Source of the DNA: a virus
Virus record (IMG/VR): IMGVR_UViG_3300045988_083036
Coordinates: 1-40,266 of that record
Reading direction: 5' to 3' (one strand)
Length of the DNA stretch: 40,266 nucleotides
How positions within the stretch are numbered: the stretch's first letter is position 1; each line of letters starts with the position of its first letter. Position numbers and translations under genes: made by a program. This document shows positions 5,780-36,948 of the stretch, piece by piece. The notes below the pieces were generated by a model. It was not told the origin of the DNA. It ran no database searches and saw only the letters and a program-made list of their open reading frames with translations.

Positions 5780-5856
5780 GTTCCGGTAGCTCAACTGGTA
5801 GAGCAGCAGCCTATTGAAGCAGCAAGTAGTTGGTTCAAATCCATCCCGGAACACCA
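5780..5856 (+). tRNA. tRNA-like gene with an 8-nt anticodon loop (CTATTGAA) and encoded CCA
   Basis: Acceptor stem GTTCCGG/CCGGAAC and D arm GCTC-AACTGGTA-GAGC. T arm GTTGG-TTCAAAT-CCATC has one T.T mismatch. The anticodon stem GCAGC/GCAGC has a central A.A. Confidence 0.6.
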
Positions 5857-6258: not shown

Positions 6259-6394
6259 GCCGCCATAGCTCAATTGGGAGAGCGCCGCCCATTTAAGGCG
6301 GGACAACGTTGGTGACACCACGGGAACATCACTGCACAGCCAACCACTGCGCACATCCATTCCGCGGGTGCTGGTTCAAATCCAGCTGGCGGCA
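6259..6394 (+). tRNA. tRNA-like gene interrupted by a 68-nt insertion between the anticodon stem and the T arm; loop CATTTAA (A at position 33)
   Basis: Acceptor stem GCCGCCA/TGGCGGC and D arm GCTC-AATTGGGA-GAGC. Anticodon arm CCGCC-CATTTAA-GGCGG. An insert occupies 6302-6369, followed by a perfect T arm GCTGG-TTCAAAT-CCAGC. Confidence 0.5.
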
Positions 6395-26383: not shown

Positions 26384-26455
26384 GGCTATGTAGCTCAGTT
26401 GGTAGAGCAGGGCGTTACACCGCCTATTGTCGCTGGTTCAATTCCAGCCATAGCA
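26384..26455 (+). tRNA. tRNA-like gene (Val-UAC-like) whose best anticodon stem leaves a 6-nt loop (TTACAC); G1.A72 mismatch, no CCA
   Basis: D arm GCTC-AGTTGGTA-GAGC and T arm GCTGG-TTCAATT-CCAGC are perfect. The anticodon stem GGGCG/CGCCT is shifted by one nucleotide. Confidence 0.5.
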
Positions 26456-26537
26456 AGCCCGAAAATGCTTGAACGGTTTTGAATAGTGCGCATACGTCAA
26501 AATTGCGATAGCAGAAGTAGGCATTTTTAGTTGATAC

Positions 26538-26586: not shown

Positions 26587-26660
26587 AATCCCCTGCTTCG
26601 CCGAAGCCCTGCGTTCCACGCGGGTACTTTATAGGCAAAGTGGGGGATTGTTTTATTCGC
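26587..26660 (+). ncRNA. Compact four-way-junction (cloverleaf-like) RNA followed by a T tract
   Basis: The closing stem is AATCCCC/GGGGATT. It encloses GCTTC-gcc-GAAGC, CCTGCG-ttcca-CGCGGG and ACTTT-ataggc-AAAGT. GTTTTATT follows. Confidence 0.4.
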
Positions 26661-32962: not shown

Positions 32963-33592
32963 TCAGATCGCATTCTTCTTTGCATCCGAAGCGGCCATAA
33001 TTTTTCTTACAAGCTCGGCATCATCTGGAGATAGACTGCTCAAATCTATCTCTCCGGCGGTGCTGGGCTTTTCTTTTTGCTCAGGTGCAGCCGGGGCGAG
33101 TACGGGGGAAGGATCATCGGTTTCGCCGTTCAGGTATGCAGCGGTCGTGTGCAGCTCTTTCGCCCAGACCTCAAGGATTTCAGGCTTCACGTTCTTCGTC
33201 CGGCGCAGGTTGCTTCCTGCCTTATCCGGCATGCCGACCATCTTATATAGGTGAGCCTGTGTTTTGCCTGACTTTTGGCAAAGGGCATAGAATCTATCAA
33301 ACTGGAATGAGCCATAGTCAACATCGAGCGGTGACGTTGTCAGGCCATCGTCTATATCATCCACGAGACCATTTATGTACTCAACAGATGTGCCAAGGAT
33401 TTCTGCGATAGCAGGTAGATATTTCGATGGAACATTAGCATTTCTGCCAGAAATCTCTGAAAGATAGCCATTGCTCTTTCCAATCTGCTGACTGATAAAG
33501 TTTAGCTTTAGGCCCCTCATCTTTGCGATTTCTCGAATTTTCACGATATTCCCTGCATTTTGGATGGGGTTTCCACCTGTTGTCTGGCCCAT
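32963..33592 (-). CDS. CI-like repressor with two XRE-type HTH domains
   Basis: HTH motifs IREIAKMRGLKLNFISQQIGKSNGYLSEI and FYALCQKSGKTQAHLYKMVGM. A GGAGG RBS lies 8 nt before ATG 33592. The gene is divergent from the early promoter. Confidence 0.75.
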   Translation of the reverse strand: MGQTTGGNPIQNAGNIVKIREIAKMRGLKLNFISQQIGKSNGYLSEISGRNANVPSKYLPAIAEILGTSVEYINGLVDDIDDGLTTSPLDVDYGSFQFDRFYALCQKSGKTQAHLYKMVGMPDKAGSNLRRTKNVKPEILEVWAKELHTTAAYLNGETDDPSPVLAPAAPEQKEKPSTAGEIDLSSLSPDDAELVRKIMAASDAKKNAI

Positions 33593-33651
33593 GAAGTACA
33601 CCTCCGAAATACAAAAAGCAGAAAAGGAAAGAAAAAAGTTTAGAAACAGTA

Positions 33652-33680
33652 TTTACAATTCTGTGATAAAGTAGTATAAT
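33652..33680 (+). promoter_or_regulatory. Early promoter copy A
   Basis: TTTACA-17 nt-TATAAT, inside a block of about 55 bp that is repeated at 36230-36285. Confidence 0.7.
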
Positions 33681-34293: not shown

Positions 34294-34361
34294 CCCGCCT
34301 GATGATGGCTGCCCGGCAGCAGCCGAAACCATCCCGGTAACGTCACCGGGATGGTCGCGGG
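34294..34361 (+). ncRNA. Hammerhead ribozyme motif, type I topology (HH-1); predicted cleavage after C34356
   Basis: The fold reads CCCGC | CUGAUGA U | GGCUGC-ccggca-GCAGCC | GAAA | CCAUCCCGG-uaacguca-CCGGGAUGG | UC / GCGGG. Confidence 0.75.
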
Positions 34362-34398
34362 AACCACCGCAAACAATCAATAATCGGAGGTATGAAAA

Positions 34399-35325
34399 AT
34401 GTCTGCAAATGTTGAAACGATGTTCTATGTCCGGGAGAAGCCTTGGCACGGTCTGGGAACCATGGTGCAGGAAGCACCCACCAGCGCAGAGGCGCTGAAG
34501 CTGGCCGGTCTGGACTGGACTGTCGAGGCCCGCGATATGTGGCTGAACGGCGGCTATGAGCCGATTCCCGGCTACAAGGCAAACGTCCGTAGCTCGGACA
34601 ACAAGGTTCTGGGCGTGGTCAGCAACAAGTACCGCATCGTCCAGAACGCGGAGGCTTTCGCGTTCACAGATGCGCTGATCGGCGGCGATGTCCACTATGA
34701 GACCGCTGGAAGCCTACTGGACGGTAAGAAGATTTGGCTGCTGGCAAAGCTGCCAGATTCCGAAATCTGCGGGGACAAGACCGAAACCTATATGTGCTTC
34801 TCCAACACGCATGACGGATCCGGCGCCGTCCGCGTCTGCATGACCCCGGTTCGCGTGGTCTGCAACAACACGCTGAACCTTGCGCTAGATACCGCGCAGC
34901 GAGCATGGAGCGTCCGTCATGTAGGCGATATCAACACTAAGCTGGTAGAGGCCCGGCAGTGCTTAGACATGGCCAATAAGTACATGGATGAACTTGCAAC
35001 CCGCGCCGACCAGATGGCAAACACCACGGTCAACGATGCACGGCTGCGGGAGGTTCTGGACAGCCTGTTCCCGGAAGCGGACGATATGACCGACCGCCAG
35101 AAGCGCCATGTGCAGGACATGAAGGACGGTTACATGGTCTGCATGATGGCTCCTGACCTCGTGAAATTCCGCAATACCGCATGGGGCGCGGTGAACGCAA
35201 TGAGTGATTTTGTCACCCACAGCGCCCCTCACCGGAACACGAAGAATTATCAGGAAAACAACTGGAACAACGTAATGAACGGACACTTCCTGATGGATGC
35301 CATGGCAAAGGCCGTCACCCGGTAA
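34399..35325 (+). CDS. DUF932 / phage-plasmid-like protein (TIGR03299-type)
   Basis: N-terminus MFYVREKPWHGLG...; 308 aa. Confidence 0.7.
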   Translation: MSANVETMFYVREKPWHGLGTMVQEAPTSAEALKLAGLDWTVEARDMWLNGGYEPIPGYKANVRSSDNKVLGVVSNKYRIVQNAEAFAFTDALIGGDVHYETAGSLLDGKKIWLLAKLPDSEICGDKTETYMCFSNTHDGSGAVRVCMTPVRVVCNNTLNLALDTAQRAWSVRHVGDINTKLVEARQCLDMANKYMDELATRADQMANTTVNDARLREVLDSLFPEADDMTDRQKRHVQDMKDGYMVCMMAPDLVKFRNTAWGAVNAMSDFVTHSAPHRNTKNYQENNWNNVMNGHFLMDAMAKAVTR

Positions 35326-35379
35326 ATATTTGATGGCTGTGCTATCTGGCCTAACGGGCGCTTTTGGAGGAACTGAAAG

Positions 35380-35922
35380 ATGTCTGATTCTATCGGAAAG
35401 AAAATTCGTGCAGCACGAAAAGACGCTCACATCACGCAGATTCAGCTTGCCCAAAGAATGGGTGTGACCAAGCAGACGGTGAGCCTGTACGAGAATGGCG
35501 GGGTCAATCCGACGGCCAAGATGCTGGCCAAGTTCGCAGCTGGGCTGAAAGTCCCTGTTGGCTTTTTAGCCGGTGACGAAGAGGGGCAGCTTGCTGGACG
35601 GTGGGTCAGCGTCAAAGTGCGCCTGCCAGAGCTGGACGAGGACGAACCATTTGCCCGCTGCATTGTGAATGTCATTCGGTGGTGTGAGGGCTGGACAGGC
35701 CCTTGGAACCAGCCGGAACCCGACTTGAATGAAGAAGAGTTCACTGCTGCCGCTGCCTATAACCCGGAGCAGAAAACTTTCACAGTGTATGATGGCTTTG
35801 GCGGCTCGATGGTGATAAACGCTCTACTCGACCCGAACGATTTTAGCGGTTCATCCGGTATGCGAATCACCCACTGGATGGAACTTCCCGCAACCTTTGG
35901 ATTCTGGGAGGCACCTCGATGA
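35380..35922 (+). CDS. XRE-type HTH fused to DUF551
   Basis: HTH motif IRAARKDAHITQIQLAQRMGVTKQTVSLYENG, followed by RWVSVKVRLPE...THWMELP. Confidence 0.7.
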   Translation: MSDSIGKKIRAARKDAHITQIQLAQRMGVTKQTVSLYENGGVNPTAKMLAKFAAGLKVPVGFLAGDEEGQLAGRWVSVKVRLPELDEDEPFARCIVNVIRWCEGWTGPWNQPEPDLNEEEFTAAAAYNPEQKTFTVYDGFGGSMVINALLDPNDFSGSSGMRITHWMELPATFGFWEAPR

Positions 35923-36152
35923 AACAATACTGCCGGTACTGCTGCAACGCCTGTCTGAACGATGACGAGCTGGCCTATTGCAGCTACAAAGACGAGATGC
36001 TAGACGGCCCTGCCCTGCGGCGGCTGAATCACTGCAAGGGCTTCCAGTTCTGCGAGATTGATGTCTTGACCCAAACCCGTATCTACAAACCCAGATCCGC
36101 AAAGCCTCCCTCTGAGGACCCAGAGGATTTCGGGCAGCAAACCCTGTTTTGA
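35919..36152 (+). CDS. Cys-rich hypothetical protein (77 aa)
   Basis: It begins MKQYCRYCCNACLNDDELAYCSYK...NHCKGFQFCE. Confidence 0.55.
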   Translation: MKQYCRYCCNACLNDDELAYCSYKDEMLDGPALRRLNHCKGFQFCEIDVLTQTRIYKPRSAKPPSEDPEDFGQQTLF

Positions 36153-36160
36153 TGGGCGAA

Positions 36161-36183
36161 ACCGGCGCTTCCGGTATTTTTTT
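36161..36183 (+). terminator. Short GC hairpin with a T7 tract
   Basis: ACCGG-cgctt-CCGGT followed by ATTTTTTT. Confidence 0.5.
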
Positions 36184-36236
36184 GGCTTTCCTTTAGAAAA
36201 ATCGAGAAACAATACAGATAAAATACAGAAAAGGTA

Positions 36237-36265
36237 TTTACAAATCTGTAATAAAGTAGTATCAT
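36237..36265 (+). promoter_or_regulatory. Early promoter copy B
   Basis: TTTACA-17 nt-TATCAT. The flanks repeat promoter A (atttacaa.tctgt.ataaagtagtat.ataaaa.cagaaaaacagt). Confidence 0.65.
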
Positions 36266-36308
36266 AAAAGCAGAAAAACAGTGTCCCACAAAACAGGAGG
36301 AACAGAAA

Positions 36309-36533
36309 ATGAAATTCTATTATGACGGCGTTCTAATCTGCTGTGCAAAGGTCAAAGAGTACAAATACGCAGTTGTCTATCCGGACAGCAAGAAAGTATG
36401 GGCGATGCATTCCCGGCATTGTTCCTTGGAGGCTGCCCAAGAGTTGCTCAAACGGGTAAAGCGCGGAATGTCCTTTTACGACCCAGAAAAGGCCGCATCG
36501 CTGCGTGTTGTCCCGCTTGAAAAACGTGCTTAA
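36309..36533 (+). CDS. Hypothetical protein (74 aa)
   Basis: First ORF after promoter B, with an AGGAGGA RBS. Confidence 0.6.
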   Translation: MKFYYDGVLICCAKVKEYKYAVVYPDSKKVWAMHSRHCSLEAAQELLKRVKRGMSFYDPEKAASLRVVPLEKRA

Positions 36534-36534
36534 C

Positions 36535-36601
36535 CCCATCTGATGATGGCCCTGTGGCAAGGGCCGAAACCACCCGGCAGCCAGCCGGGCAAGGTCGTGG
36601 G
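36535..36601 (+). ncRNA. Hammerhead ribozyme motif, type I topology (HH-2); predicted cleavage after C36596
   Basis: The fold reads CCCAU | CUGAUGA U | GGCCC-uguggcaa-GGGCC | GAAA | CC-a-CCCGGC-agcca-GCCGGG-caa-GG | UC / GUGGG. Confidence 0.7.
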
Positions 36602-36630
36602 AGCCACCCACAGAAAGGAGAACCGATATC

Positions 36631-36858
36631 GTGTCGAAGTATTACACCACCAAAGAAACTGCCAAAGCGCTTGGCGTATGTCAGGCAAGGGTCCTTCAGC
36701 TCAGGAAGCAGGGCCTGCTGGACGCTTATTCTCACGGAGAGAAGGGCAGCAAGAGCAAGTTCTACTTCCTCGCTGATGACGTTGAGCACTACAAGCAGAG
36801 CCGAGACAACCCGGAGCAGCCGCCGTTACGCAAGGTCAGCACCAAGGAGACCGCCTGA
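36631..36858 (+). CDS. Excisionase/MerR-like HTH protein (GTG start)
   Basis: Motif YTTKETAKALGVCQARVLQLRKQGLL. AAAGGAG RBS. Confidence 0.6.
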   Translation: MSKYYTTKETAKALGVCQARVLQLRKQGLLDAYSHGEKGSKSKFYFLADDVEHYKQSRDNPEQPPLRKVSTKETA

Positions 36859-36948
36859 TGAACGGGCGTAATAAGTACTGGCGGGAAGCCCGCTGGGACA
36901 AGAACCAGCCTGCACGGCTGGCACACATCAAAGAAAAGAGGTCGAAGC

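Follow-up and report, generated by a model that had tools for sequence, protein, structure and literature searches.

What does a hammerhead ribozyme do in the genome of a phage? In the 15 years since phage hammerheads became known, no function has been established for them, and the role of the prokaryotic ones is still termed an open question (PMC6155905). The locus considered here lies in a viral contig of 40,266 nucleotides (IMG/VR record IMGVR_UViG_3300045988_083036, positions 1 to 40,266), which was analysed over its full length and is referred to below as the window. An earlier note, made from the letters alone, had placed a hammerhead motif (HH-2) at 36535-36601, between a short open reading frame (ORF) and a helix-turn-helix (HTH) gene, and had compared it with another copy (HH-1). 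A phage hammerhead as such is unsurprising to a specialist, and the question raised by this locus is what the element may be for. Judged from its sequence, HH-2 is very probably a genuine hammerhead, and we consider it probable that it also cleaves itself and in this way processes an early phage transcript. Its parts, and the sister copy, are as follows.

36535-36539, + strand: 5' strand of stem I, CCCAU, which pairs with 36597-36601 (C-G, C-G, C-G, A-U, U.G).
36540-36546, + strand: core C3-A9, CUGAUGA, invariant in both family alignments.
36547, + strand: extra U between A9 and G10.1, a one-base deviation from the hammerhead core consensus.
36548-36553 and 36560-36565, + strand: stem II, GGCCCU/AGGGCC, 6 bp closed by G36548-C36565, with loop GUGGCA at 36554-36559.
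36566-36568, + strand: core G12, A13 and A14 (GAA), invariant in both family alignments.
36569-36595, + strand: stem III hairpin, from A15.1 (36569) to U16.1 (36595), containing an internal loop.
36596, + strand: C17, followed by the predicted scissile bond 36596^36597, its position taken from the hammerhead consensus.
36597-36601, + strand: 3' strand of stem I, GUGGG, which doubles as the 5' arm of an alternative hairpin.
36603-36607, + strand: GCCAC, predicted pseudoknot partner of GUGGC (36554-36558) in loop II, beginning 2 nt past stem I.
36607-36611, + strand: CCCAC, a repeat of the 5' strand of stem I that forms the hairpin GUGGG-AGCCA-CCCAC, either as an alternative fold or after cleavage.
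34294-34361, with a tail to 34370, + strand: sister copy HH-1, with the cut predicted after C34356, tail AACCA and CCGC at 34367-34370, preceding a DUF932 gene.

The core, the extra U, the GAAA and the U-C step lie exactly where the earlier note had put them, and HH-2 does start 2 nt past the upstream ORF, as a single base separates the TAA stop (36531-36533) from stem I. Stem II pairs as GGCCC/GGGCC, as had been proposed, and proves to be 6 bp long (GGCCCU/AGGGCC) instead of 5. Likewise, the start of the element stands and its end at 36601 does not, because the pseudoknot partner (36603-36607) and the strand of the alternative hairpin (36607-36611) lie beyond it. Stem III opens with the pairs A36569-U36595, C36570-G36594 and C36571-G36593, passes an internal loop (A36572 opposite C36590-A36592) and ends in a distal helix, CCCGGC (36573-36578) with GCCGGG (36584-36589), capped by the loop AGCCA. 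An alternative register with U36547-G36566 as the first pair of stem II was rejected, since it would take G12 out of the core. The topology is that of type I, in which stems II and III are closed by loops and stem I is open, according to both the order of the parts and the minimum free energy (MFE) fold. Position 17 is not a G: C36596 corresponds to the base found in nearly all relatives, A occurring occasionally. A tertiary contact of stem I with stem II seems to be provided by the pseudoknot predicted between loop II and the tail. Besides HH-1 and HH-2, 76 of the 81 relatives collected have the inserted U, although the search patterns demanded it. De la Pena and Flores reportedly saw a U at the inserted position raise the rate.

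With a full descriptor that demands the core together with three helices and a base other than G at position 17, just two sites in the window qualify, HH-1 and HH-2, each on the + strand; 300 dinucleotide shuffles of the 40-kb window, scanned in both orientations, give no site at all. On its own, the core pattern is not unusual (2 matches vs 1.08 expected). HH-1 and HH-2 each fold alone into a three-way junction, and a covariance model of the family, run unfiltered over the whole window, gives them 69 and 62 bits, respectively, with the next match at 13 bits. This weak third match (36847-36901, + strand, E 0.044) reads CCGC-CUGAUGA, 19 nt, GCGGG-AAGCC-CGC; it has stem I, core, tail and repeat without stems II and III, and it spans the stop codon of the HTH_17 gene. 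No full copy is present at the corresponding site in relatives, and the match was not counted as a third copy; it could be a decayed hammerhead or a chance occurrence.

Relatives were gathered by a loose, core-only scan of viral contigs and genomes, which yields mostly chance matches and was screened with the descriptor. Among the viral-contig matches listed, at least 25 are complete hammerheads that share the inserted U and differ strongly in their helices, and among the genome matches listed at least 8 are true loci, most of them in metagenome-assembled genomes of Clostridia and two from cyanobacteria. As a rough comparison only, cores with the inserted U were counted at about 25 of 120 loci and canonical cores at 43 of 119 among the matches listed, and both kinds are mixed within one phage in L093 and L226. 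In a MAFFT alignment of 36 diverse members, 93.7% of the cells are paired, against 31-45% with slid partners, and both sides have changed at 14 of the 17 pairs. This percentage is partly built in, as the members were picked by a descriptor that demands pairing; the weight of the set lies in many unrelated sequences fitting a descriptor that random sequence essentially never satisfies. Arrays of 3-4 type I hammerheads, each standing before a successive small gene, were also observed (L085, L093, L226, L357, L404 and L456), and the copies within one phage often have stem I and stem III in common and differ in stem II.

The second alignment was chosen without regard to RNA, from 30 viral loci that encode relatives of the HTH_17 protein downstream of HH-2. 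In all loci with enough upstream sequence, except L326, a hammerhead ends about 13 nt ahead of the start codon, including six loci whose HTH_17 protein is only 58-59% identical. Many of them have a second copy about 2.7 kb upstream, before a DUF932 gene, like the HH-1/HH-2 pair of the window. Across the 17 distinct upstream regions of this set, the whole structure is 92.7% paired (31-46% when slid), stem I is 100% paired with one covarying pair (A-U to G-C), and in stem II, which is 95% paired, 4 of the 6 pairs have changed on both sides. Four stem III hairpins occur at the orthologous site (CCACCCGGCAGCCAGCCGGGCAAGG, CACCCGAAAGGGUG, CCAUUUUCGYCACGUCACGAAAAUGG and CCAUCUUGUUGAUACCAACAAGAUGG), along with at least five versions of stem II, one of which is identical to stem II of HH-1; the exact stem III of HH-2 is found in 85 viral contigs, and at the orthologous site three other perfect hairpins stand in its place. 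Wholesale replacement of stems II and III at this site has left the core with its extra U, the pairing, the GGC/GCC contact and the hairpin further downstream in place. The earlier note had drawn its covariation from HH-1 and HH-2, which keep their pairing despite different helix sequences; both wider alignments back it, and the hammerhead reading stands because the covariation persists once homologues are added.

The pseudoknot between loop II and the tail covaries over the family as well, with combinations such as UGGAU/AUCCA, UAGCU/AGCUA, CGACU/AGUCG, UAGGAC/GUCCUG, UGGG/CCCA and UGGU/ACCA. Loop II matches its own tail over 3.57 bp on average, compared with 3.03 +/- 0.09 for permuted tails, and none of 2000 permutations reached as high. 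The signal is absent from 49 phage hammerheads with a canonical core (2.65 vs 2.67), hence the pseudoknot appears to be specific to the GC-rich subfamily with the inserted U.

Because the 5' strand of stem I is repeated after the tail, GUGGG can pair either upstream, in stem I, or downstream, in a hairpin. The repeat tracks stem I as the latter changes: GCGG is followed by CCGC in HH-1, AUGGG by CCCAU in L006 and UUGGU by CCAA in L435, while the full series of stem I strands and repeat reads CCUGC/GCAGG/CCUGC in the Faecalibacterium phage FP_Epona, GCUAU/AUAGC/GCUAU in L075 and GUCUAA/UUAGAC/GUCUAA in L357, giving at least six different sequences. Among 52 variants with the stem III of HH-2, GUGGG is always followed by CCAC and GCGGG always by CCGC, and the match is kept even in nine variants whose upstream strand makes only a G.U wobble. 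In the orthologous set the hairpin is 94% paired, with a U-A to C-G change. Hairpins formed with the own repeat score 3.29, against 2.75 for permuted and 2.49 for shuffled sequences. The 49 canonical-core copies, which had played no part in forming the hairpin idea, give 3.02 vs 2.62 +/- 0.11 (0/2000), and two positional controls are flat.

Folding suggests an order of events. The active fold is the MFE structure until about 36607 has been transcribed; with the downstream context, the alternative fold becomes the MFE structure of HH-2. With the pseudoknot not counted, the active and alternative folds are computed at -32.6 and -34.5 kcal/mol for HH-2, and at -40.1 and -38.6 kcal/mol for HH-1. 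The 3' product of cleavage is predicted to open with the hairpin.

A natural variant separates the two halves of the element. In L326 (2900-3000, on the same contig as L477), the HTH gene is 99% identical and no hammerhead match is found. A deletion that begins just past the second promoter and ends midway in stem III has removed the upstream ORF together with the 5' strand of stem I, the core and stem II. The promoter is thereby joined directly to the distal stem III hairpin, which is followed by GUGGG-AGCCA-CCCAC, the ribosome-binding site (RBS) and the gene. Nothing upstream would need to be cut away in such an arrangement, and this single case suggests that the catalytic half is dispensable there, with the module of hairpin and RBS retained.

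The surroundings of HH-2 supply the remaining parts of the argument.

32963-33601, leftward: CI-like repressor.
33652-33680, + strand: promoter-like site TTTACA-17-TATAAT, which shares its -35 hexamer and spacing with P2.
36161-36185: terminator-like hairpin with a T-run, between the two units.
36237-36265, + strand: promoter-like site P2, TTTACA-17-TATCAT, a consensus match, with the same sequence kept in L326.
36309-36533, + strand: upstream ORF of 74 aa, called as a gene in relatives, with homologues in L353 and L354.
36614-36620, + strand: RBS AAAGGAG of the HTH_17 gene 36631-36858, which starts with GTG at 36631.

This region is the early arm of a temperate phage. The first unit runs rightward and comprises the promoter-like site, short ORFs, HH-1, DUF932, a Cro-like HTH_3 gene, a 77-aa ORF and the terminator-like hairpin, and the second comprises P2, the 74-aa ORF, HH-2 and HTH_17, followed by DUF739-like, RecT and SSB genes. 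In both, the ribozyme is placed after one or more promoter-proximal short ORFs. HH-1 and HH-2, which are 2.2 kb apart on the + strand, bracket DUF932, HTH_3 and two small ORFs. In relatives of 34399-36630 (L474-L479), the genes between the two hammerheads change as cassettes, in which DUF932 is constant and is followed by Lar restriction alleviation, Cro-like HTH_3 or unknown small ORFs. The gene behind HH-2 had been called an excisionase-like HTH gene, a putative label drawn from nothing more than a Pfam match to HTH_17 (E 2.4e-9) and weak PHROG matches, to excisionase and to small terminase. Family-wide, a stop codon usually abuts stem I, and an RBS and start codon follow within about 15-35 nt; among the canonical-core copies, a stop triplet lies within 12 nt of stem I in 36 of 49.

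Human-gut metagenomes commonly contain this lineage, whose downstream protein is indexed in identical form in 204 blocks of the assembly collection. Among deposited phages, a similar element is found only in FP_Epona (NC_047910, 47526-47603, - strand; L480, 1974-2057), in which no annotation covers it; it is placed between gp72 and gp71, and its core has C in place of U4. A megablast search of the 7-kb region against deposited phages found essentially nothing. The element has its closest cultured relative in a phage of Faecalibacterium prausnitzii.

These observations can be combined into a scheme. Transcription from the promoter-like site at 36237-36265 would produce an RNA with the 74-aa ORF, HH-2 and the HTH_17 gene. 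The three-way junction would form once the 3' strand of stem I emerges, and the 5-bp pseudoknot GUGGC/GCCAC probably locks stems I and II together. The RNA would then cut itself after C36596, between the 74-aa ORF and the HTH gene. The upstream piece would retain its stop codon and end in the hairpins of stems II and III with a 2',3'-cyclic phosphate, while the downstream piece would begin with a 5'-OH at G36597 and refold its first 15 nt into GUGGG-AGCCA-CCCAC. As a 5-bp stem I held between two molecules would fall apart after cleavage, the hairpin would form without a competitor, drawing the stem I strand off the ribozyme and leaving the RBS free 3 nt further on. The effect would be to uncouple the mRNA for HTH_17 and the downstream genes from the promoter-proximal leader ORF. 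If the host is a Firmicute, as we assume, the hairpin at +1 may also shield the new 5'-OH from 5'-3' exonuclease. We are less sure of this capping role of the hairpin, which at best stands evenly balanced between being right and wrong. More tentatively still, the hammerhead with its inserted U, its pseudoknot lock and its stem I repeat might together make up a compact 'cut-and-cap' cassette, a natural counterpart of the RiboJ insulator that also serves as a joint for the shuffling of early genes.

Several points weigh against this account. The extra U sits in the core itself. Rfam models (RF00163, RF00008 and RF02275-7) detect no hammerhead at the gathering score in the window, nor any at E<=10 in 36400-36750. 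They also miss canonical-core copies, in L093 (three tandem hammerheads, two of them with the fully canonical core CUGAUGAG or CUGACGAG) and in seven further loci; since these controls were missed too, the silence of Rfam points to insensitivity of its models to the short phage architecture. The folding energy of HH-2 is unremarkable (z-score -1.2, vs -4.4 for HH-1), and HH-1 has merely a 2-3 bp version of the pseudoknot, the GGC/GCC core of which is invariant among close relatives and hence uninformative there. As for the hairpin, its U-A to C-G change in the orthologous set possibly reflects a single evolutionary event, and it is not universal, reaching at least 4 bp in 13 of the 49 canonical copies. 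Some relatives depart from what activity should demand: otherwise intact copies in L272, L289, L305 and FP_Epona have the core CCGAUGA (U4 to C), and the 3' strand of stem I is lost in L268, L308 and L322, so not every copy need be active. Finally, the promoter and terminator are consensus matches only, and the host is deduced from one 77%-identical match to a Faecalibacterium phage.

The repeat at 36607-36611 could alternatively make HH-2 a conditional ribozyme, in which the repeat acts as a switch that competes with the active fold by capturing the 3' strand of stem I and burying the pseudoknot tail in its loop. The cleaved fraction would then be set by the speed of transcription or by terminating ribosomes, tuning the ratio of bicistronic to processed mRNA. 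Regulated cleavage has been raised as an option for phage hammerheads by Perreault et al. (PMC3088659), and the nearly isoenergetic folds of HH-2 and HH-1, the MFE structure of HH-2 with downstream context and the upstream stop codon abutting stem I, here and in most relatives (within 12 nt in the 36 of 49 canonical copies), would all suit such a device. However, the 3' strand of stem I is made about 10 nt ahead of its competitor, the uncounted pseudoknot should favour the active fold, tertiary-stabilised hammerheads cleave fast and nothing resembling a ligand-binding or sensor domain is seen. L326, moreover, keeps the hairpin although no ribozyme remains there to be regulated. We consider a switch unlikely, and rate it below cutting followed by refolding because the competitor is transcribed last and is retained in the ribozyme-less L326. 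That HH-2 is instead a decayed, non-catalytic relic, its core inactivated by the extra U or another feature and its hairpins serving as a 3'-end stabiliser, an RNase III or RNase Y site or a spacer, seems quite improbable. The inserted base does depart from the core consensus, relatives with the U4C core or without stem I exist, and Rfam finds no match; but none of the 11 core bases varies across dozens of relatives with fully replaced helices, a constancy that plain hairpins would not need; position 17 is never G, and the pair A15.1-U16.1 is never lost. The inserted U is itself conserved, coexists with canonical cores in single phages and occupies a position at which an insertion is tolerated in a natural hammerhead.

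The element also coincides with joints between gene cassettes, which raises the idea of a linker acting at the level of DNA, with the ribozyme features secondary. One type of ribozyme joins many neighbours: at least four different downstream genes follow the upstream flank 'tcgccctgaataac', at least eight different contexts occur upstream of the HTH gene, and six other contigs have the upstream flank of HH-1, 'gggaaatctattga', in front of HH-2-type ribozymes. CCCGC occurs together with GUGGG in nine variants, as crossovers inside the element would give, and the phage encodes RecT. The 3' strand of stem I, the tail and the RBS travel with the downstream gene, and stems II and III assort independently. 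Yet the G.U pairs, the compensatory changes, the pseudoknot and the co-orientation with genes have no rationale at the DNA level, and the invariant stretches of just 7-10 nt are short for homologous exchange. A linker of this kind is accordingly very improbable as the primary function, and we read the mosaic joints more simply as a by-product of conserved sequence between cassettes. As to chance resemblance, the bare core is no rarity (2 matches, as given above), but the full descriptor is never satisfied in the 300 shuffles, the element is conserved at the orthologous position in the 30 loci examined, an identical stem III recurs in 85 contigs and the protein-selected set is far better paired than its slid controls; the explanation is refuted, its probability being practically nil. 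A genuine hammerhead that processes an early transcript is the reading we prefer.

If the cassette proposal were true, the exchange of strands would make cleavage irreversible and protect the 5'-OH from an RNase J-type exonuclease in Firmicute hosts, and early-gene cassettes, anti-restriction genes included, would be shuffled at the element among human-gut phages. It would also give prokaryotic hammerheads a concrete function that can be tested. The locus offers paired ribozymes at defined positions, a cultured relative in FP_Epona, a natural deletion variant and a prediction for the +1 hairpin that can be mutated; and since the human-gut lineage is so common, metatranscriptome reads should exist. 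For annotation, the consequence is that pipelines based on Rfam overlook a whole subfamily.

Other RNA features were observed elsewhere in the window, all on the + strand. The Rfam family DUF3800-VIII RNA is strongly matched at 26587-26649 (68 bits, where gathering requires 40.2; E 6e-11), and a tRNA-like gene (26384-26456) ends 130 nt upstream of it. The latter and another at 5780-5856 are reported by ARAGORN as tRNAs without an assigned identity and with abnormal anticodon loops (two-base ac and four-base attg, respectively; Rfam 47.9 and 50.9 bits), and they may be frameshift or suppressor-type phage tRNAs. A further Rfam tRNA match (6259-6394, 51 bits) is split into two halves, its anticodon arm being separated from its T arm by about 65 inserted nt, and is not called by ARAGORN.

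Among known systems, the nearest are the clustered type I hammerheads flanking genes in prophages, described in 2011 (PMC3088659). In that study, tandem copies from prophages cleaved both in vitro and in E. coli, and the cutting of polycistronic phage RNAs was put forward as their role; pseudoknots broadly like that of HH-2 are predicted there for about 40% of hammerheads. HH-2 resembles them in its core, its three-helix junction with an open stem I, its intergenic position and its co-orientation with genes, and also in the several copies per phage, which flank one gene or a short block of genes, and in the closeness to genes of integration and of the early region. Further likenesses are a Watson-Crick pseudoknot in place of loop-loop contacts and the proposed cutting into gene-length mRNAs. 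Even the link with anti-restriction recurs, through ardA in the 2011 set and through DUF932 and Lar between HH-1 and HH-2 in the present lineage. Unlike the core variations listed in the text of that paper (A6C, A6a, U13a, C3-G8 to U-A, U15.1-A16.1 and 2a/2b), HH-2 has a U between A9 and G10.1; the repeat of the stem I strand downstream is likewise not described there, and current Rfam hammerhead models miss the subfamily with the inserted U. Literature searches on the A9/G10.1 insertion and on 'CUGAUGAU' returned nothing relevant, and no description of the conserved U insertion, the pseudoknot between loop II and the tail or the stem I repeat was found in the literature searched, which did not include the 2011 alignments.

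A precedent for the extra base exists in the (+) hammerhead of CChMVd, which is natural and active and has one extra nucleotide, A10, at exactly the same place between A9 and G10.1 (De la Pena & Flores 2001, cited in PMC1636495). There the ribozyme is of type III and the base is an A, accounted for by a further function in the folding of the viroid, whereas HH-2 has a U in a type I hammerhead of a DNA phage. A core stabilised by a Watson-Crick pseudoknot is also found in the pseudoknot hammerhead 8YDC (PMC11300833), a crystal structure of 2024. It was rejected as a matching architecture, as its helix II is replaced by the pseudoknot, with an extra hairpin upstream, in a pistol-like fold; HH-2 has an ordinary helix II, the loop of which would pair with the 3' tail. 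HH-2 joins an already known class, given the clustered prophage hammerheads known since 2011 and the viroid precedent for the extra base.

For the fate of the products, the glmS ribozyme is a parallel, as its cut leaves an mRNA with a 5'-OH, as is predicted for HH-2; in B. subtilis that end is degraded by the 5'-3' exonuclease RNase J1 (PMC3328962); the comparison assumes a Firmicute host for HH-2. Cleavage of glmS destabilises the downstream mRNA, whereas the hairpin predicted at the start of the HH-2 product should block such attack. HH-2 has the layout of the RiboJ insulator, in which hammerhead, hairpin and RBS follow in the same order and the upstream RNA context is removed from the downstream gene (PMC7536230). 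RiboJ was engineered from a type III satellite-RNA ribozyme with a separate, added 23-nt hairpin; HH-2 is natural, and its hairpin would re-use the ribozyme's own stem I strand and form only at the expense of stem I.

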